Source: an uncultured Candidatus Saccharibacteria bacterium
GTDB taxonomy: Bacteria > Patescibacteriota > Saccharimonadia > Saccharimonadales > JAGQNK01
DNA length: 64,000 nucleotides
Direction: 5' to 3'
Assembly: GCA_964636355.1 (NCBI GenBank)
Contig: CAZWRG010000003.1
Span: 793-64,792, forward strand
Shown here: in pieces, positions 4,840 to 33,023 of the stretch
Layout: each line of letters begins with the position of its first letter
Numbering within the stretch: the stretch's first letter is position 1
Notes under the pieces: model-generated
Database searches by the model: none
Told to the model about the DNA's origin: nothing
The model's input: the letters and a program-made list of their open reading frames with translations, nothing else
Translations under genes and position numbers: made by a program

Positions 4840-5552
4840 AAGCCAAAGATCTACAGGATGAGTTAGCTAAATATGCCAGCGATGCTGATGCAGTATTTTT
4901 GCAGCGATTTTTCAAAACTGGAAAAGGGCAATATGGCGAAGATGATAAGTTTATTGGCGTACGGGTGCCAATGACCCGCAAAGTCTGCAAACAATTTAAA
5001 GATTTATCGTTGCCAGAAGTGCAAAAATTATTTGATTCTGGAGTCCATGAACATCGCTTGGCGGCCGTAATTTTACTAGTCAACAAATATCCGAAAGCGG
5101 ATAAAAACCAACAATTTAAAATATACGAACTCTATCTTAAAAACATTAAAAATGGACGGGTAAATAATTGGGATTTGGTTGACGCTTCGGCTGAGCACAT
5201 CATCGGGGCACACAGTTTTGATACCGATCGAAAAGTGCTGTTTGAGCTGGCTAGGTCTAATGATTTATGGCAAAAACGGGTAGGCATCATGAGTGCTTTT
5301 AATTTTATAAAGCGCGGTGACGCCAGTACGACGCTTGAGCTGGCAGAAATATTGCTGCATGATCCGCATGACCTGATCCAAAAAGCGGTTGGCTGGCAGC
5401 TACGTGAAGTCGGCAAGCGTGTAGATCAAAATTTGTTGCTTGAATTTTTAGATAAGCACGCCGCTACCATGCCGCGAACAACTCTTCGTTATGCCATTGA
5501 GCATTTAACACCAGAAATCAGACATCACTACATGACTCAAAAACCACACTAA
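4836..5552 (+). CDS. DNA alkylation repair protein (AlkD-like HEAT-repeat glycosylase family)
   Basis: FLQRFFKTGKGQYGEDDKFIGVRVP and WQKRVGIMSAF match the AlkD-type family pattern. ATGA overlap with doc. Confidence 0.7.
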   Translation: MKAKDLQDELAKYASDADAVFLQRFFKTGKGQYGEDDKFIGVRVPMTRKVCKQFKDLSLPEVQKLFDSGVHEHRLAAVILLVNKYPKADKNQQFKIYELYLKNIKNGRVNNWDLVDASAEHIIGAHSFDTDRKVLFELARSNDLWQKRVGIMSAFNFIKRGDASTTLELAEILLHDPHDLIQKAVGWQLREVGKRVDQNLLLEFLDKHAATMPRTTLRYAIEHLTPEIRHHYMTQKPH

Positions 5553-5553
5553 A

Positions 5554-5579
5554 AATGCCCGGGGTGGTTACCGGGCATT
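5554..5579. terminator. Bidirectional terminator between convergent genes
   Basis: AATGCCCGG / CCGGGCATT 9-bp stem flanked by an A-run and a T-run. Confidence 0.65.
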
Positions 5580-5603
5580 TTATTTTATAGACTAAGTGGC
5601 TAA

Positions 5604-6293
5604 TTATTTTGTTCTTTTGAAGTGCGTGTAAACATCAGCCACGATTTTGCCAGCTGTGTCGCGACCGCCAAGACCAAACGCCAGACCAAGAGCCAGCATG
5701 AATCCAGCCACGATGACCGTTATGTTATTGGTCAGAATGGTGGTGTTGAAGCCCAGCTGATCAAGTGCCATTACTGCTCCAAAAATCATTAGAACATAAA
5801 AGGCAATCATTGATACGCCGTTGGCGTAGTCTACGCGCATGCGAGCCAGCGAGGCGCGAACTACATCACGAATGATGCGGGCACCAGCTACGGCCACAGT
5901 TATAACCAACGCGGCGGCTAGCACGTTAGGTAGATAACCGACAAATTCGCGGATTACATCGCGCATTGCGCTGAGCCCCAGAACATCAGCGATGGTCAGC
6001 GCGAAAATAGCAATTACTGACCAAAATACTACTCGACCAGCGATTGACACAACATCTATATCAATCTCGGCGGTGTTCAGGGTCTTAGCAACTGTTTTGT
6101 TTTTTTGTAATTTATCAACTTTTAGTAATCTTAAAGCGTTTTCTATCAAATATTGGAACAGTTTGGCGGCCACTAACGCCAAAATAATTAATATTAAAGC
6201 ACTGACTAATTTTGGCAAAAATGCTCCGACAGCGGTCCAAAATTCGCCCGCAGAATCAGAAAGCCTATCGCCTAAGCTTTGTACTTCGTTCAT
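5604..6293 (-). CDS. Multi-pass membrane protein (TM-helix-repeat type)
   Basis: 229-aa ORF with 5-6 hydrophobic helices. The antisense ORF 5992-6327 was rejected. Confidence 0.6.
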   Translation of the reverse strand: MNEVQSLGDRLSDSAGEFWTAVGAFLPKLVSALILIILALVAAKLFQYLIENALRLLKVDKLQKNKTVAKTLNTAEIDIDVVSIAGRVVFWSVIAIFALTIADVLGLSAMRDVIREFVGYLPNVLAAALVITVAVAGARIIRDVVRASLARMRVDYANGVSMIAFYVLMIFGAVMALDQLGFNTTILTNNITVIVAGFMLALGLAFGLGGRDTAGKIVADVYTHFKRTK

Positions 6294-27165: not shown

Positions 27166-29478
27166 TTATTTTTTGGTGGTTTTGCGGCGAGTAAAGCGCT
27201 TTTTAGCAGCCGGCGCTTCAGCGAGTAATTTTTTGGCCTGTTCGTGGGTGATGTCTTTAGGTTCGGTATCTTTGGGGATTTTGGCATTCTTTTTGCCATC
27301 GGTGATGTACGGGCCATAGCGTCCTTTGAGGACTTTTATACCGTCGCCAAAATCAGCAATGTTCTTTTCTGCTTCAGCCTGAAGCTTAGCCTCATAGAGG
27401 TCACGAGCTTCGGCTAGCGTAATGGTATGAGGATCGAGCGGCTTAATGCTTGCAAAGAGTTTATCGACTTGTATATAAGGACCGAACCGACCGATGTTGG
27501 CTTTGATATCTTTGCCATCTGCAGTTTGACCGACCAAGCGAGGCAGTTCAAAGGCTTTGAGGGCCTGTTCAATTGTAACGGTTTCTATCTTGGTGCCGCG
27601 TGGCAATGGCGCAAACTGCGGCTTGTCGGTATCGTCTGTCGCGCCGAGCTGAAGCATTGGTCCAAACCGGCCAAACCGTGCCAAAATTGGTTTGCCAGAC
27701 TTGGGGTCAATGCCGACTTCGCGTGACTGCCCAACGGTTGAGCGGTCGATTCCGCCAGATTTTTCTATTAGTTCATGGAACGGTGTGTAAAACTCATTTA
27801 GCATCTTATTGCGATCGAGTTTGCCGGCTGCTATCTGGTCAAATTCTTCCTCTACGTTGGCAGTAAAATCGTAATCTACTACTTGGTCAAAGTGGTTATT
27901 AAGAAAGTCGCTGATGAGCTGTCCGCTGGCCGTTGGCACTAGTTTGCCGCGATCAGAGCCGGTTTTTTCTTGAATAATCTCTCTGTTAACGGTGTTGTTC
28001 TGTAGATTTAGAACAATCACATCCCGCGGCGTGCCTTCGCTCTCGCCTTTTTCGGCGTAGCCGCGTACCTGCACAGTATTAATGATAGTGGCGTAGGTCG
28101 ATGGACGGCCAATTCCGAGGTCTTCGAGTTTTTTGACCAAGCTACCCTCGGTATAACGAGCCGGTGGCTTGGCAAAGATCTGTTTGGCGGTGGCTGATTG
28201 CAACTCTAGACTGTCGTTGACAGTCACTGCTGGCAGGATATCGGGATCTTTTTTGCTGGCTCCATACACTTTGAGGAAGCCATCAAACACAATGACTTCA
28301 CCTTTGGCTTCAAATGTTTCGGCTTGACCGGATATTGCTATAGTGACAGTGGTTTTCTCGAGCTTGGCTGATGCCATTTGGCTGGCTAGCGTGCGCCGGC
28401 GAATAAGATCATAGAGTTTCTGGTTATACTCGTCGCTGCTGGCCTTTTCGGCGCTGATATTTGTGGGGCGAATGGCTTCATGAGCTTCTTGGGCGCTGGC
28501 AGATTTGTTTTTAAAGGTTCTAATTTGATGATACTCTTTGCCAAATGCTTCGGTGACGTAATTTGTGATTTGTGAAAGTGCTTGCCCGCTCAAGACAACA
28601 GAGTCGGTACGCATGTAGGTGATTTTTCCCTCTTGGTAGAGTTTTTGGGCGGCCGACATGGTAGCTTTGGCGCTAAAACCGAGGCGGGCGTTGGCTTCCT
28701 GTTGCAGGGTGCTGGTGGTAAACGGTGCGCTGGGGTTGCGCGTGCCAGGACTAGTGACAACGTCGGTTACCGTAAATGTTTGACCAACAAGGCTTTCTAG
28801 GAAAGCCTGTGCTTCTGCTTCGGTTTCGAAACGTTTTGGTAATTCGGCTTTGAGTAAGCCATCATCTGTGCGGAATTCAGCCGTCACCTTAAAAGTAGAT
28901 GAGCTTGCAAAGGCGTCAATTTCTCGTTCGCGCTCCACCAGAAGCCGCACAGCTGGTGATTGGACGCGTCCGGCAGATTTGCCGCCTGGGACCTTTTGCC
29001 AAACGACTGGGCTGAGTTCAAAACCGACAATACGGTCCAGGATTTGTCGTGCTTGCTGAGCTTGGACGAGGTTCATATCGACGGTACGCGGGTTTTTGAT
29101 AGCTTCTTCGATAGCGCTCTTTGTGATTTCGTGAAATACAATTCGTTTAGTGGTTTTTGGGTCGAGTCCGAGCACCTCGCACAAATGCCAGGCAATCGCC
29201 TCTCCTTCGCGGTCTTCATCAGTTGCCAGCCAGACTTGTTCGGCTTCGCGAACGGCTTTTTTGAGTTCAGTAATGACCTTTTTCTTCTCTGGATCAATTT
29301 CGTAGACAGCCTTAAAGCCATTTTTGACATCGATAGCGTCGCTGCCGTCCTTGGTCTTTTTGGCGATTGACCGAATATGACCAACACTTGAAAGCACCTT
29401 AAAATCACTACCGAGATATTTCTCGATAGTCTTGGCTTTGGCCGGGCTCTCAACTATTACTAGATTTTTTGCGCTCAT
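27166..29478 (-). CDS. topA: DNA topoisomerase I
   Basis: TOPRIM N-terminus LVIVESPAKAKTIEKYLG, ATDEDREGE, active-site region ITYMRTDS. Zn-finger-less C-terminal repeats with a Lys-rich tail. Confidence 0.92.
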   Translation of the reverse strand: MSAKNLVIVESPAKAKTIEKYLGSDFKVLSSVGHIRSIAKKTKDGSDAIDVKNGFKAVYEIDPEKKKVITELKKAVREAEQVWLATDEDREGEAIAWHLCEVLGLDPKTTKRIVFHEITKSAIEEAIKNPRTVDMNLVQAQQARQILDRIVGFELSPVVWQKVPGGKSAGRVQSPAVRLLVEREREIDAFASSSTFKVTAEFRTDDGLLKAELPKRFETEAEAQAFLESLVGQTFTVTDVVTSPGTRNPSAPFTTSTLQQEANARLGFSAKATMSAAQKLYQEGKITYMRTDSVVLSGQALSQITNYVTEAFGKEYHQIRTFKNKSASAQEAHEAIRPTNISAEKASSDEYNQKLYDLIRRRTLASQMASAKLEKTTVTIAISGQAETFEAKGEVIVFDGFLKVYGASKKDPDILPAVTVNDSLELQSATAKQIFAKPPARYTEGSLVKKLEDLGIGRPSTYATIINTVQVRGYAEKGESEGTPRDVIVLNLQNNTVNREIIQEKTGSDRGKLVPTASGQLISDFLNNHFDQVVDYDFTANVEEEFDQIAAGKLDRNKMLNEFYTPFHELIEKSGGIDRSTVGQSREVGIDPKSGKPILARFGRFGPMLQLGATDDTDKPQFAPLPRGTKIETVTIEQALKAFELPRLVGQTADGKDIKANIGRFGPYIQVDKLFASIKPLDPHTITLAEARDLYEAKLQAEAEKNIADFGDGIKVLKGRYGPYITDGKKNAKIPKDTEPKDITHEQAKKLLAEAPAAKKRFTRRKTTKK

Positions 29479-29657
29479 GCTTTTATCACGTTACAGGTAT
29501 TAATTATCAATTGCAACTTTGAGATACAGATCCTTAAGTTAAATCTGTCCTGGCAAATACTTATGCAGCTAAGCCTGGACAATTAGCAATGCGCCGATTC
29601 GGCACAACAGGAAGTAAGACTATAGAGTTAGGGGCGTGGAGTCAATAGTTAATTTGT

Positions 29658-30026
29658 GCTTGAGGATTCTCCGGTAGCCTTCTTAAGCAAGCCCCTATTG
29701 CCTGCGGCCTCCTGGCCGCTGAGGCAAGCTACCTTTTCCATTCGGGGAAAAGGTAGCCCAAAAGCCGACAGGCGACTGTCTATTCTTGAAACGTCTGTTG
29801 TCAAAGACCACAATGCGGTAAGACGTTCCGCTAGCGCTGCTCAGTCTTCCGCATACTATTGTGGCTTTGACTAACATCCGTATCAGGAATAGCCAGAGCC
29901 TGAGGGGAAACTATGCAGCGACTCAGTCGCTGCTATTAATTAAATAGCGAGGCTTATGCCCCCGCTAGTATCCCTACAGGCTCTATTTAGGCAAAGGTTG
30001 AAAGCTTCCTGAGGTCAGACCTCAGG
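29658..30026 (+). ncRNA. Candidate structured RNA of unknown class, antisense to the flanking genes
   Basis: Helices at 29658-29688 (9 bp, 2 G.U valid only on +), 29704-29719, 29728-29757 (12 bp), 29801-29870 (nested), 29895-29984 (multibranch) and 30008-30026, then a T-rich tail. Confidence 0.4.
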
Positions 30027-30086
30027 TGGTCTTATTGGTTTTGGATAACTGCTTGTTGGATCAAAGAGGTATCGGATATGAGGTTT
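30005..30086. repeat. Copy A of an ~80-nt repeated intergenic element
   Basis: CTTCCTGAGGTCAGACCTCAGG is identical to 49864-49885. Further blocks (TTATT, TGCTT, TCAAA(G/A)AGGTAT, GATGAGG) are shared. Confidence 0.7.
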
Positions 30087-30122
30087 ACTGTTGTTATTTT
30101 AGATAGCGAGGAAATGTGACAT

Positions 30123-30980
30123 TTAGCAGATGGTCCAGTGGTTGGCGCCGGTGGAGCGGATTTTGCCAGTAATTTCCATCATCGTCAGTGTTTGATTAAA
30201 TGTAATGGCGTCTAGTTTACTATGACTCAGCAGAAGATTGCCCTCAGTTATTCCCTCTTTTAAGAGTTGTATAATTGCCTCTTCTTCAGCGTTAGCGGCC
30301 AGTGTTTGAACTATCTCCAGCTGCTCGCCAATGCCCAGCTCATTAAAAATATCTTGAGCAGAGGTTACAACAGAGGCGCCGGTTTTAATCAGATTATTGG
30401 TGCCGCGTGATAAGTTGCTGGTTATATTTCCTGGCACGGCCATAACGGTTTTACCCTGATCAAGCGCAAAGCCGGCAGTGTGCAGAGTGCCGCTTTTCTC
30501 CGCAGCTTCAGTTATTAATACTCCGCTGCTTAGACCAGAGACTAGCCGATTGCGGGCTATAAAGTGTGGTCTGAGCGGCGGCGTGCTTTCCGGATATTCG
30601 CTAATTAACGTTCCACCTTCCTCTAAGATCCGCTTGGCTAGTTGGCGGTTGGTGGAGGGATAGGGCTTGTCCAACCCGCATGGCAACACAGCGATAGTTC
30701 GGCCGCCGGCGTCCAGCGCGGCCTTATGGGCAATAGCATCGACCCCTAGCGCCAAGCCGCTGATAATTACTATGCCCTTCGCGGCTATTTGACTGACTAA
30801 ATCTTCAGTTACGCCCCTTCCATATGGTGTGACTTTGCGGCTGCCAACTACAGCTAACGAGTTGCTTTCATGAAGCAAATCGATGCTTCCGATCACGTAG
30901 ATTTCACCTGGCGAGTCTGGGATTCTCCGTAGATTTTCGGGAAAATGTACCGATTTTGAGCTGATTTTTTGAATTTTCAT
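30123..30980 (-). CDS. dprA: DNA processing protein DprA (Smf)
   Basis: VVGSRKVTPYGRGV ... SGLALGVDAIAHKAAL ... GTLHTAGFALDQGK Rossmann-like DprA core. Confidence 0.85.
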   Translation of the reverse strand: MKIQKISSKSVHFPENLRRIPDSPGEIYVIGSIDLLHESNSLAVVGSRKVTPYGRGVTEDLVSQIAAKGIVIISGLALGVDAIAHKAALDAGGRTIAVLPCGLDKPYPSTNRQLAKRILEEGGTLISEYPESTPPLRPHFIARNRLVSGLSSGVLITEAAEKSGTLHTAGFALDQGKTVMAVPGNITSNLSRGTNNLIKTGASVVTSAQDIFNELGIGEQLEIVQTLAANAEEEAIIQLLKEGITEGNLLLSHSKLDAITFNQTLTMMEITGKIRSTGANHWTIC

Positions 30981-31119
30981 ACCCTAGCCCCTGATTATTT
31001 GGCATATAACAGATTGAATAATCTGAACTTCAAGTATTTAACCTGCTTAAATACTAATGCTTTTAACTGCGTTTTACAATGATTTTATAGCTAAAACTGG
31101 ATAAAAAGTCCAAAAGGTA

Positions 31120-31147
31120 TTGACAAAGATAATATTTTTGCTAAAAT
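31120..31147 (+). promoter_or_regulatory. Strong promoter TTGACA-N16-TAAAAT (TGc extended -10) with no ORF behind it
   Basis: TTGACA at 31120-31125 and TGCTAAAAT at 31139-31147. Downstream sequence is non-coding and highly structured. Confidence 0.55.
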
Positions 31148-31337
31148 GACAACTTGTAATTACTGTAATGGTATTTACGCACCTTATACCCCTATTCTAA
31201 CATCTCGCTTATGCGAGATTTAAGTTAGAGTGTTTTAGAACGGCTACGTAAGTTGTTACCCTCCACTTATCTTAGCGGTGCCATTTCTCTTTTGGGAAAA
31301 GCGGCAACGTTCTAAAACATACTAACCCCTTTAACTT

Positions 31338-31632
31338 CCCGCACCTTTTAGCGGTATAATCGACGTATGTATTACGTCTACTTGCTAAAAAGTGAGGCTA
31401 CCAATAAATGGTATATAGGCTGTACAAGTGATCTGCGACGTCGATTAAATGAGCACAACAGATCAAAAAGTATTTCAACAAAAAGTGGAATACCTTGGAA
31501 GCTAATGTACTATGAGGCTTTTCCGACCGAGCAATCAGCTCTGCGACGAGAGCAGAAGCTCAAGCATCACGGAAAAGGACTTAGCGAACTGAAGCGACGC
31601 ATTATGCTCGGTTGATCGCTAAAAGGTGCGGG
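31338..31632 (+). repeat. Perfect 16-bp inverted repeat bracketing the GIY-YIG ORF
   Basis: CCCGCACCTTTTAGCG (31338-31353) and CGCTAAAAGGTGCGGG (31617-31632). The right arm starts 2 nt after the stop codon. Confidence 0.9.
31367..31615 (+). CDS. Stand-alone GIY-YIG (URI-domain, YhbQ/COG2827-like) nuclease, 82 aa
   Basis: YYVYLLKSEATNKWYIGCTSDLRRRLNEHN ... E(x)KLK pattern. TATAAT at 31355-31360 lies 6 nt before the ATG (leaderless-type). Confidence 0.8.
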   Translation: MYYVYLLKSEATNKWYIGCTSDLRRRLNEHNRSKSISTKSGIPWKLMYYEAFPTEQSALRREQKLKHHGKGLSELKRRIMLG

Positions 31633-32073
31633 ACCCGGTTCAAAGTGAGTACGTCAGGTATGCTCAGTCTGTCTGAGCGGCGCGAGTCTTTATGGAGTTT
31701 GGACATCGACGCTTACACTCGGGTGGGTTGAAGGGTATTACGGAGCTAATGCTTGCATTGGCTCCTGAAAAACGGTCTTCGAGCGGTGCCCACCCCCTCT
31801 CGGAGGCCGTTTTTCAGTTTATGCCCAGCCACGTTTCGCGCTCACATCCTGCGAGCCCAACTTCAACTTACTTGGGACAAGCCCCAAAACAGTTGATAGT
31901 TCTTGCGGTGAGTTACTGACTCACCTCACCCGAAACTTCATCTATGAAAACAAGTTTTCAAGAAAAGATTTCCTTGCATCATGCCACTGGCATGCTTCAC
32001 CCTCTGTGAGCTCTTTTTATTTTTTGACAAAAAGCGTTGCCTAGACCATAAAAAGTGATATAGTGCCAATAGT

Positions 32074-32385
32074 ATGATTGAAGATTATGAAGCAAGGTGT
32101 TTTAGGCTTGACACAGATGAAGCGTTTAGATTGAAAGCCGACAGAATGGAGATCCCTTTCAGAGAAGCGCCAGGGTTTCTCGCGTGGGTTCAATACAGAC
32201 AGGCTCTAAATGAGGAGATAGACCCTAGTGTTTACCCTTCAGGGGCTGATAAAAGCCACGTTGTGCAACGACAGATCACCGATCGAGATCTATTCGCGGG
32301 CATTATAGATATTTTGGAGCCGCACGTCGCCCCTTCAATCGCTAAAGGCGCAGAGTTATTGTTGAGGTCCCAGACAGATAGCTAG
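32074..32385 (+). CDS. Hypothetical protein
   Basis: 103-aa ORF. Its 3' end overlaps the convergent pth by 4 nt. Confidence 0.4.
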   Translation: MIEDYEARCFRLDTDEAFRLKADRMEIPFREAPGFLAWVQYRQALNEEIDPSVYPSGADKSHVVQRQITDRDLFAGIIDILEPHVAPSIAKGAELLLRSQTDS

Positions 32386-33023
32386 ATTAAGAAACTGCGG
32401 GTTTCGTGGGCTATTTGGCCGGAAAAAACAAAATCGGTTAGAATGCTGATTACTTCTTTGGTTAGGTTGTCTAGTTGGGCTTTTTCTTTGGCCGTGAACT
32501 TTGCTAAAACATAATCAGCGCTGTCCATGGCCTCTGGTCTGGAGCCGTCAATCCCAATTCTGACTCTGCCAAAATCTTCTCCGATACATTGAATAATCGA
32601 CTTCACCCCATTATTTCCGGCATCACTGCCACCGGTTCGGATCCTGATTTGCCCAAACTCAATCGCCAGCTCGTCATGAACAACTATGATCTGATCGCTG
32701 TGAATTTTATAAAAATGAGCGATTTTTTGAACCGCCTGGCCGCTTAGATTCATCATGGTGGTTGGCTTGCACAAAATAACCCTGGTATCGCCTAGATTAG
32801 AGCTAGTCATTAGGCACTTAAAATCCTTCTTTTCAATCCAGGGCTCAAACTCATGCGTTCTGGCGAATTCCTCCAGGCACTTAAAACCGATGTTATGACG
32901 AGTGTCTTGATATTTATCGCCAATATTTCCAAGGCCAACAATCAACACTGTTTTGTTGCTGCCAAGCGTAAAGAGCGGTTTGTTGTCGGTGATAGTGTGA
33001 GGGTTTCGCTGAAATAAAGCCAT
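32382..33023 (-). CDS. pth: Peptidyl-tRNA hydrolase
   Basis: LIVGLGNIGDKYQDTRHNIGF ... VVHDELAIEFGQIRIR ... GGSDAGNNGVKS. Confidence 0.9.
   Translation of the reverse strand: MALFQRNPHTITDNKPLFTLGSNKTVLIVGLGNIGDKYQDTRHNIGFKCLEEFARTHEFEPWIEKKDFKCLMTSSNLGDTRVILCKPTTMMNLSGQAVQKIAHFYKIHSDQIIVVHDELAIEFGQIRIRTGGSDAGNNGVKSIIQCIGEDFGRVRIGIDGSRPEAMDSADYVLAKFTAKEKAQLDNLTKEVISILTDFVFSGQIAHETRSFLI

Follow-up and report, generated by a model that had tools for sequence, protein, structure and literature searches.

Intervening sequences (IVSs) are known from helices 9, 25 and 45 of 23S rRNA in Salmonella, Coxiella, Leptospira and Campylobacter, and some of them encode S23p (23S_rRNA_IVP). GIY-YIG open reading frames (ORFs) are known in non-intron insertions of the rRNA genes of candidate phyla radiation (CPR) bacteria. 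According to the accessible part of the source (PMC11270868, J Bacteriol 2024), which attributes these insertions to Brown et al. 2015, all GIY-YIG ORFs in CPR rRNA belonged to insertions other than introns, and RNase III-type IVS processing was suggested for short non-intron CPR rRNA insertions at known IVS sites. Here we analyse a GIY-YIG cassette in a 64,000-nt stretch of DNA from an uncultured Candidatus Saccharibacteria bacterium (GCA_964636355.1, contig CAZWRG010000003.1, positions 793-64,792, forward strand), which we call the window. We put at roughly 0.78 the probability that this locus is a stand-alone structured non-coding RNA gene, here termed the host RNA, in which a hairpin tip has been replaced in the window genome by a 297-bp selfish GIY-YIG cassette. 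The cassette is one of a mobile family whose members show very strong enrichment at the hairpin tips of stable structured RNAs.

The host RNA and its conservation

Homologous loci were gathered via dprA, the divergent neighbour of the locus; the best relatives by DprA are other Saccharibacteria, with 65-68% identity. Saccharimonas-like genomes (L020-L022) are among those searched. Both flanks of the cassette are conserved directly upstream of dprA in relatives, and the cassette is absent from L006, L007 and L008, which have a hairpin of ~25-35 nt at that site instead. Because the two flanks lie only ~25-35 nt apart there, they are parts of one contiguous element that carries a 297-bp insertion in the window, and an alignment with cassette-free loci (L006-L009) fixes the insert boundaries at this length. 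A first-pass annotation of this DNA, made from the letters alone, had listed among its alternatives a novel large non-coding RNA invaded by a hairpin-flanked GIY-YIG cassette, and this is the alternative that the relatives bear out, since they keep one conserved RNA with a short hairpin at the ORF site. Covariance model (CM) searches of dprA loci found the host RNA, with both of its domains, in 23 Saccharibacteria loci. Eight other dprA loci searched, most of them from other phyla, lack it (L027-L029, L031, L034, L047, L048 and L053), so that within the dprA-locus sample the RNA, as predicted by these models, is confined to Saccharibacteria. The parts of the host RNA in the window are the following.

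31120-31147, plus strand: host RNA promoter TTGACA-N16-TGcTAAAAT, 11/12, with an extended -10 TG
31152-31335, plus strand: 5' domain of the host RNA (CM R2, 176.6 bits)
31156-31178, plus strand: helix H1, 5' domain
31196-31201 with 31224-31229, plus strand: helix H2, 5' domain, with an inner hairpin at 31202-31219
31230-31242 with 31308-31320, plus strand: helix H3, 5' domain
31248-31253 with 31265-31270, plus strand: helix H4, with the invariant 11-nt loop UGUUACCCUCC at 31254-31264
31279-31306, plus strand: helix H5, 5' domain
Within the 5' domain, plus strand: conserved single strands ACGCACCUUAUACCCCUA and ACUAAC, invariant and unpaired
31327-31335, plus strand: 5' strand of helix P6, CCCUUUAAC, pairing with GUUGAAGGG at 31727-31735 (RNAalifold)
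31634-31818, plus strand: 3' domain of the host RNA (match to CM R1)
Within the 3' domain, plus strand: junction helices CCCGG/CUCGGG and GUGAG/CUUAC
31662-31678, plus strand: helix H8, 3' domain
31679-31713, plus strand: helix H9, 3' domain
31721-31726, plus strand: GGGUGG, G-rich, invariant and unpaired, 3' domain
31727-31735, plus strand: 3' strand of helix P6, GUUGAAGGG, 3' domain
31742-31765, plus strand: variable hairpin, 3' domain
31768-31814, plus strand: terminator hairpin with a near-invariant loop at 31784-31798 that contains GCCCACCC, followed by a U-run

The promoter, of the sigma-70 type and with a 16-nt spacer, had been read correctly from the window alone, and TTGAC-N17-20-T(A/G)n(A/T/C)AT occurs at the homologous position in all 20 of the 20 homologues checked. 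The host RNA extends from 31152 to ~31818 in the window, or ~375 nt minus the insert, which makes a unit of ~0.67 kb with the insert rather than the ~0.9 kb first proposed; 31819-32030 is a separate, poorly conserved tail. The T-run at 32012-32025 is present but does not mark the end of the RNA as had been thought, because the conserved RNA stops at the terminator hairpin and U-run of 31768-31814. Homologues are ~270-560 nt long, and the added length always lies at hairpin tips or at one junction.

Two long helices had been described in the flanks and both are there: 31224-31242 with 31308-31326 (19 nt, 89% complementary) and an inverted repeat at 31765-31786 with 31796-31817. The impression of strong structure also holds, as the left flank, the right flank and the whole transcript fold well beyond shuffled controls (z-scores of -4.7, -5.3 and -10.6, respectively). 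The host helices and the stem of the cassette form side by side in the predicted minimum free energy (MFE) fold of the whole transcript (674 nt). The R2 model matches the plus strand at 176.6 bits and the minus strand at 22.4 bits.

For the covariation analysis a separate model was built for each half of the host RNA (R1 for the 3' domain and R2 for the 5' domain) and all homologues were re-aligned to them. Both domains covary strongly among the 23 homologues, with compensatory changes at 86 of 108 pairs when pooled. In the 5' domain 92.3% of cells are paired, against 71% in shuffled controls and 30-42% when the partners are slid; compensatory double changes occur at 33 of 42 pairs, and the covariation score is 0.499 against <=0.10 for slid partners. 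The 3' domain behaves in the same way (93.2% of cells paired, against 73% shuffled and 38-51% slid), with compensatory double changes at 53 of 66 pairs and a covariation score of 0.336 against ~0.05. Of the 14 pairs in the terminator stem 12 covary, and the core of the terminator loop, GCCCACCC, does not vary. The 5' domain is a multi-branch fold that exposes the invariant loop UGUUACCCUCC and C-rich single strands. The long-range helix P6 closes the 3' domain, has a C-G pair exchanged for G-C in L011 and L015, and is kept in the full-transcript MFE. The invariant GGGUGG at 31721-31726 is complementary to the invariant CCCACC of the terminator loop, which suggests a pseudoknot. By-eye comparison of the other invariant C-rich segments (the H4 loop or the 5' single strand against the H9 loop) gave no partners that are conserved in distant homologues.

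The gene order der-pth-[RNA]-dprA-topA is constant among the loci that carry the host RNA. The RNA is predicted to be transcribed divergently from dprA, and the sole gene downstream of it in relatives is the convergent, tail-to-tail pth. This arrangement bears on the idea that the flanks are a cis-regulatory leader, such as a riboswitch or attenuator, whose terminator hairpin controls a downstream gene. The 3' hairpin is terminator-like, and its invariant loop could pair with the invariant G-run that lies upstream, in the manner of certain riboswitch pseudoknots. The next gene in relatives, however, is pth on the opposite strand; ORF103, which lies downstream in the window, is unique to it; and a highly conserved leader of ~375 nt with no gene to regulate is implausible. 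We consider a leader very improbable.

No Rfam 15 family fits the RNA, either in the window or in insert-free relatives. At the gathering threshold the window and eight relatives gave no relevant family match, and at E<=10 the region 29400-32500 and the insert-free L006 gave only chance microRNA and sRNA matches to the palindromic H3 helix. The models for ROOL, GOLLD, OLE, raiA, HEARO, RNase P, tmRNA, 6S and signal recognition particle (SRP) RNA do not match the host RNA at or near gathering or at E<=10, ARAGORN finds no tmRNA at the locus, and the RNA is not described in the searchable literature.

The host could nevertheless be a highly diverged RNase P RNA, tmRNA, 6S RNA or SRP RNA that the Rfam models miss. 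CPR RNase P RNAs are often missed at standard thresholds, and diverged ones with extended helices are on record (PMC8172020); three of those found in this work (L133, L154 and L098) score below the Rfam gathering threshold. The cassette prefers housekeeping RNAs, and a two-domain build of ~375 nt is similar to RNase P RNA or tmRNA. Yet the diverged CPR RNase P RNAs still reach E<1e-7, whereas the window and the insert-free L006 give no match at E<=10. The host RNA lacks the universal RNase P motif GGAAAGUCC (P4) as well as a tRNA-like acceptor/T-arm and a CCA end, its two ends are unpaired and so form no 6S-like rod, and no SRP domain IV motif could be read. On balance such an identity is improbable.

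A further explanation would make the flanks the remnants of a protein-coding gene broken by the cassette, and a 75-aa ORF (31692-31919) that overlaps the right flank and short tblastn matches in relatives might seem to favour it. These protein-like matches are split over different frames, though, the flanks have no Pfam match, and the cassette-free relatives also lack an ORF. No notable ORF spans the flanks, as the first-pass annotation had noted, and the variation among homologues is concentrated in compensatory stem changes. Decayed coding sequence is thus extremely improbable. From these comparisons we conclude that the host RNA is a putative uncatalogued, independently transcribed structured RNA gene of Saccharibacteria.

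The inserted cassette and its nuclease

The insert in the window consists of the following parts.

31337-31633, plus strand: GIY-YIG cassette, 297 bp, replacing the short variable hairpin of relatives
31337-31353 and 31617-31633, plus strand: perfect 17-bp arms of an inverted repeat, TCCCGCACCTTTTAGCG and CGCTAAAAGGTGCGGGA
31355-31360, plus strand: internal -10 TATAAT, 6 nt before the ATG (TTAACT-18-TATAAT scores 10/12)
31367-31615, plus strand: 82-aa GIY-YIG nuclease ORF, UPF0213/YhbQ and Slx1-like (Pfam PF01541, E=2.6e-17)

The inverted repeat around the ORF is perfect, as first described, but is 17 bp long rather than 16 bp, and it has no further copy within the window. The TATAAT lies exactly 6 nt 5' of the ATG, also as described, and the -35-like TTAACT of this internal promoter (31331-31336) falls in host sequence. 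The position of the -10 probably predicts a leaderless mRNA starting at the A of the ATG. The cassette is sporadic, being present in the window locus and not in the 22 other host RNA homologues.

The ORF is confirmed as a GIY-YIG protein, and its labelling as YhbQ-type is apt, because its best solved relatives are UPF0213 proteins and Slx1 and not I-TevI. Profile matches to the Protein Data Bank (PDB) are led by 1zg2 (E=5e-15), followed by 1ywl (1.5e-8) and Slx1 7cq2 (1.7e-7); the closest solved relatives are thus the UPF0213 proteins BH0048 and EF2693 and the nuclease domain of Slx1, which is a structure-specific endonuclease. The match to I-TevI is marginal (E=5e-3). Residues Y3, Y5, Y16, G18, R26, H30 and E62 are invariant across an alignment of 35 GIY-YIG homologues, and the catalytic residues are intact in the window ORF. 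The protein is the catalytic domain alone and carries no DNA-binding extension, as had been noted. An exact-protein look-up returned no record of the 82-aa sequence. Close homologues number 60 in the protein collection, six of which (P0001-P0006) are 62-71% identical to it, and the Joint Genome Institute (JGI) metagenomes hold >536 relatives. Homing to the same site within one family was considered and rejected, as P0001, P0004 and P0005 sit outside this host RNA.

The first-pass annotation had compared the locus to an intron that bears a homing endonuclease. In its full form this explanation would make the whole locus a mobile intron of group I or group II, or else a self-splicing RNA of a new kind, which encodes its homing endonuclease in a peripheral loop. 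The layout does resemble that of such introns, with a nuclease ORF placed in a helix loop of a structured RNA; rRNA and tRNA introns abound in CPR genomes, and one cassette-bearing 16S gene (L099) also holds a true group I intron. The analogy did not survive the searches: Intron_gpI (RF00028) and the group II models have no match at E<=10 in 29400-32500, although RF00028 does detect the L099 intron. There are no flanking exons. The flanks are contiguous in relatives, which retain the RNA without the ORF and lack only the 297-bp cassette, and they have their own conserved promoter and terminator at a fixed syntenic position in 23 genomes. Group II introns usually encode a reverse transcriptase/maturase, whereas this ORF is a GIY-YIG nuclease, and in the accessible part of the earlier report the GIY-YIG ORFs of CPR rRNA all lie in non-intron insertions (PMC11270868). 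An intron at this locus has, in our judgement, next to no likelihood.

The insert has the form of an IVS instead: it occupies a helix tip, its complementary arms form an extended stem, and the host fold is kept in the MFE. Its host is neither 23S nor 16S rRNA, as no rRNA model of Rfam matches the window locus.

Other homologues show insertions and expansions of their own. Two have ORF-less insertions a few nt upstream of the cassette site, within ACUA|ACCCCUUUAAC: that of L009 (~5510-5700) is ~165 nt long and is bounded by an inverted repeat of ~20 bp (GTAGACTCCTCCCCAGATAAG… / …TTTATCCGGGGAGAAGTCTAT), and L016 has a 37-nt hairpin at the junction homologous to the L009 insertion. Large expansions occur in H5 (L017 and L019), in H2 (L012 and L013) and in H1 (L010). 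Like rRNA and RNase P RNA, the host RNA tolerates extra length at the tips of its hairpins.

One single strand of the host, the invariant CGCACCTTATA (31178-31188), resembles the 5' arm of the cassette, CGCACCTTTTA (31340-31350), and is 91% complementary to the 3' arm (31620-31630). This likeness may be due to chance (~1 in 10 after multiple 8-mers) or may reflect a shared binding motif.

Related cassettes in CPR bacteria

The cassette family is abundant in CPR (Patescibacteria). Relatives of the nuclease were collected by scanning JGI metagenomes with an 11-sequence alignment, which biases the sample to the KLKHHGKG subfamily; arms and -10 elements were compared among 54 distinct intact cassettes, and hosts were assigned via Rfam at 41 loci. 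The outer part of the terminal stem has the consensus CCCGCACC…GGTGCGGG, that is, CCC(C/A)GCACC…GGTGC(G/T)GGG, and the stem begins 0-2 nt past the stop codon. Most of the 54 cassettes have these arms or covarying variants of them, such as CCCAGCAC/GTGCTGGG, CCGAGCACC/GGTGCTCGG, CCCTCACC/GGTGAGGG and GCCGCACC/GGTGCGGC, in all of which the pairing is kept. In 22 of the 54 a TAnnnT hexamer stops exactly 6 nt short of the ATG, whereas each other offset tested accounts for 0-8, and 13 of these 22 also have the TGn of an extended -10. A -10 that ends 6 nt 5' of the ATG is spaced as one would expect if the mRNA is leaderless and begins with the A.

Known RNA genes are the hosts at 26 of the 41 loci: 16S rRNA genes at 11, 23S rRNA genes at 4 and RNase P RNA genes at 11. 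In the RNase P RNA cases GAGGAAAGUCC often follows directly on the 3' arm, which by our own reading places the cassette stem at P3 of RNase P RNA. The literature searched contained no report of a GIY-YIG ORF in RNase P RNA. Cassettes may be one cause of the extended helices in the diverged RNase P RNAs of CPR. The targeting of structured RNA genes is a strong tendency and not a rule.

Several individual loci differ from the simple pattern. One 23S gene (L001) contains a GIY-YIG cassette together with two IVP ORFs. In L099 (4073-4860) a 16S gene has a cassette in its V2 region, followed at once, near the 3' end and with slight overlap, by the bona fide group I intron. Two cassettes ~129 kb apart (L088 and L090) are found on one 575-kb contig (Ga0326597_10000002) of a single CPR genome, and the ORF of the L090 cassette has an early stop after 2 codons and is decaying. 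The flanks of the L088 cassette (…GGAAGTCGGGTGAAAATCCCGCGCTGTGCCGCAACCGTAAA|cassette|…) look by eye like a cobalamin riboswitch, but there is no Rfam match at E<=0.01 and we do not claim one. Four loci (L089, L091, L092 and L093) share one host site in no recognised RNA, where the cassette stem extends into a host stem (GCCATATGTGGGCT… / …AGCCTCCACATAGAC); this site may be a further undescribed structured RNA. In another case, beyond the 41 loci, the cassette adjoins rpmH (L166). At two loci (L171, 1427-2923, and L172, 707-1594) a NUDIX-RNase H fusion gene precedes the GIY-YIG ORF, as does a GIY-YIG-related T5orf172/MUG113 gene in L171, so some members of the family may sit in a protein-gene context.

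Several points weigh against reading the locus as a stand-alone RNA gene that hosts a mobile cassette. Cassettes at 15 of the 41 loci, one of them between two tRNAs (L162), lie in no recognised RNA gene. The flanks of the insertion sites have no sequence in common, so classical homing is not evident, and nuclease relatives that are 71% identical to the window protein are not located in the host RNA. The distribution and copy number of the RNA are judged at dprA loci alone. Alignments built on CMs are biased towards the structure of the model, although the slid-partner and shuffled controls are nonetheless far lower. The proposed pseudoknot and the C-rich loops are beyond covariation testing because both are invariant. 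GUUAG at 31224-31228 has two possible partners, the invariant CUAAC at 31197-31201 (in H2) and that at 31322-31326 (extending H3); L030 covaries for the upstream CUAAC, and L014 lacks the upstream partner and favours the downstream one. The two partners could be an alternative-pairing switch. Finally, we infer the transcript ends, processing and translation of the locus from its sequence.

Mechanism, neighbouring regions and comparison with known systems

If the locus is an RNA gene with an inserted cassette, the host promoter would yield a full-length RNA in which the 17-bp cassette stem forms. The paired arms would stand in for the replaced hairpin so that the host fold is preserved, which is the logic of 23S rRNA IVSs. 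As in those IVSs, the stem may be cut by RNase III, or it may be kept as an expansion segment. The nuclease would be translated from a leaderless mRNA begun at the internal promoter. Being Slx1-like, it may act on structured DNA, for example on cruciforms or on hairpins at the palindromes that encode RNA hairpins, and so promote spread of the cassette. As an alternative to such structure targeting, insertions may persist only at sites where pairing of the arms restores a helix. The host RNA itself might be a stable trans-acting RNA or a ribonucleoprotein (RNP) scaffold, whose exposed C-rich, anti-Shine-Dalgarno-like motifs would bind G-rich RNA or protein; this is a guess and the weakest point of the scheme.

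Beyond this lies a bolder possibility, which we hold tentatively and think rather unlikely. The host RNA would be a new housekeeping-level RNA class of Saccharibacteria, acting as an RNP scaffold, a ribozyme or a global regulator through anti-Shine-Dalgarno-like loops, and the cassettes would be distinct mobile elements that the Slx1-like nuclease aims at palindromic, hairpin-coding DNA in structured-RNA genes with high expression.

Saccharibacteria live as ultrasmall epibionts and have reduced genomes. The ~375-nt RNA is likely to be important because, in such genomes, it has its own promoter and sequence blocks that are conserved beyond the neighbouring proteins. The GIY-YIG cassette type was already known in CPR rRNA, and the host RNA family is new; the defined architecture of the cassette and its wider host range, which takes in RNase P RNA and the host RNA, appear new. 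A published oddity of CPR rRNA thus becomes a defined element with conserved terminal arms, a predicted internal leaderless promoter and wider hosts. It points to a general selfish-gene strategy of hiding in the hairpin tip of a stable RNA and bringing its own closing stem. Cassettes also break the covariance-model annotation of CPR RNase P RNA and rRNA. If the family does favour structured RNAs in its unassigned contexts too, the cassettes at those 15 of 41 loci could act as beacons for undescribed structured RNAs of CPR.

Downstream of the host RNA, the window contains the tail that had been counted as part of the locus.

31819-32030, no strand assigned: tail outside the conserved RNA, with hairpin CATGCCACTGGCATG at ~31980-31994 and the T-run at 32012-32025

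Only 31927-32031 of this region matches a relative, the nearest one (L008), where it lies directly after the pth stop. The tail is probably terminator or spacer sequence that adjoins the 3' end of the convergent pth in relatives. Its hairpin CATGCCACTGGCATG resembles a perfect bidirectional terminator in L014, AAAACGTGCCACTGGCACGTTTT, and several tails end in a repeat of the host RNA terminator's CACCCTCT…stem…T-run. In the region 32037-32385, a promoter-like TTGCCT-16-TGaTATAGT ends 9 nt before the ATG of ORF103 (32074-32385, 103 aa), which overlaps the pth stop codon tail-to-tail. Pfam and NCBIfam give no match for ORF103, and none of the relatives has a counterpart; it may be a lineage-specific insertion between pth and the former pth terminator. 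On the other side of dprA, the spacer between topA and dprA (29479-30122, 640 bp) has no long ORF and contains several terminator-like hairpins. It had been paired with the host RNA as a second structured RNA bracketing dprA; this pairing falls, as neither blastn nor nhmmer matches the spacer to any related locus, in contrast to the host RNA.

The closest described elements are the GIY-YIG insertions of CPR rRNA genes. The window protein is of the same family and is 65% identical to P0006, which is encoded within a 23S rRNA gene, and in both cases a small ORF (~80-88 aa) sits in a non-intron insertion at the helix tip of a stable RNA with a patchy distribution. The window differs in that the host is an uncatalogued RNA, and the cassettes collected here also occupy RNase P RNA (11 loci) and sites that lie in no known RNA gene. 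The conserved terminal stem and the leaderless layout with the -10 at N6 are not described in the accessible part of the earlier report (PMC11270868).

Classical 23S IVSs with S23p ORFs appear to be a close functional parallel. Like the cassette they replace a terminal hairpin, form a long stem from complementary arms, are absent from orthologues and can hold a small ORF. The window host is a different RNA, and its ORF is a nuclease with its own promoter and not S23p; excision by RNase III may occur here by analogy. The cassette shares the GIY-YIG core with I-TevI, the Seg enzymes and the group I homing endonucleases, and like them is a selfish gene sited where the host transcript is little harmed. 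Unlike I-TevI it comes with no ribozyme and no DNA-binding domain (82 aa against ~245 aa), and unlike homing endonucleases its family uses insertion sites that share no sequence.

The host RNA can be compared with OLE, ROOL, GOLLD, raiA and HEARO, being long, multi-helix, covarying and lineage-restricted, in a fixed neighbourhood and with its own promoter and terminator. It is smaller (~375 nt) than OLE, ROOL and GOLLD and does not match these Rfam models. RsaE/RoxS are C-rich regulatory sRNAs, and the host RNA likewise exposes conserved C-rich motifs (CCCUCC, CCCC) able to pair with Shine-Dalgarno-like sequences. This is a resemblance only, as the host RNA is 3-4x longer and has an elaborate, conserved, tertiary-type architecture.

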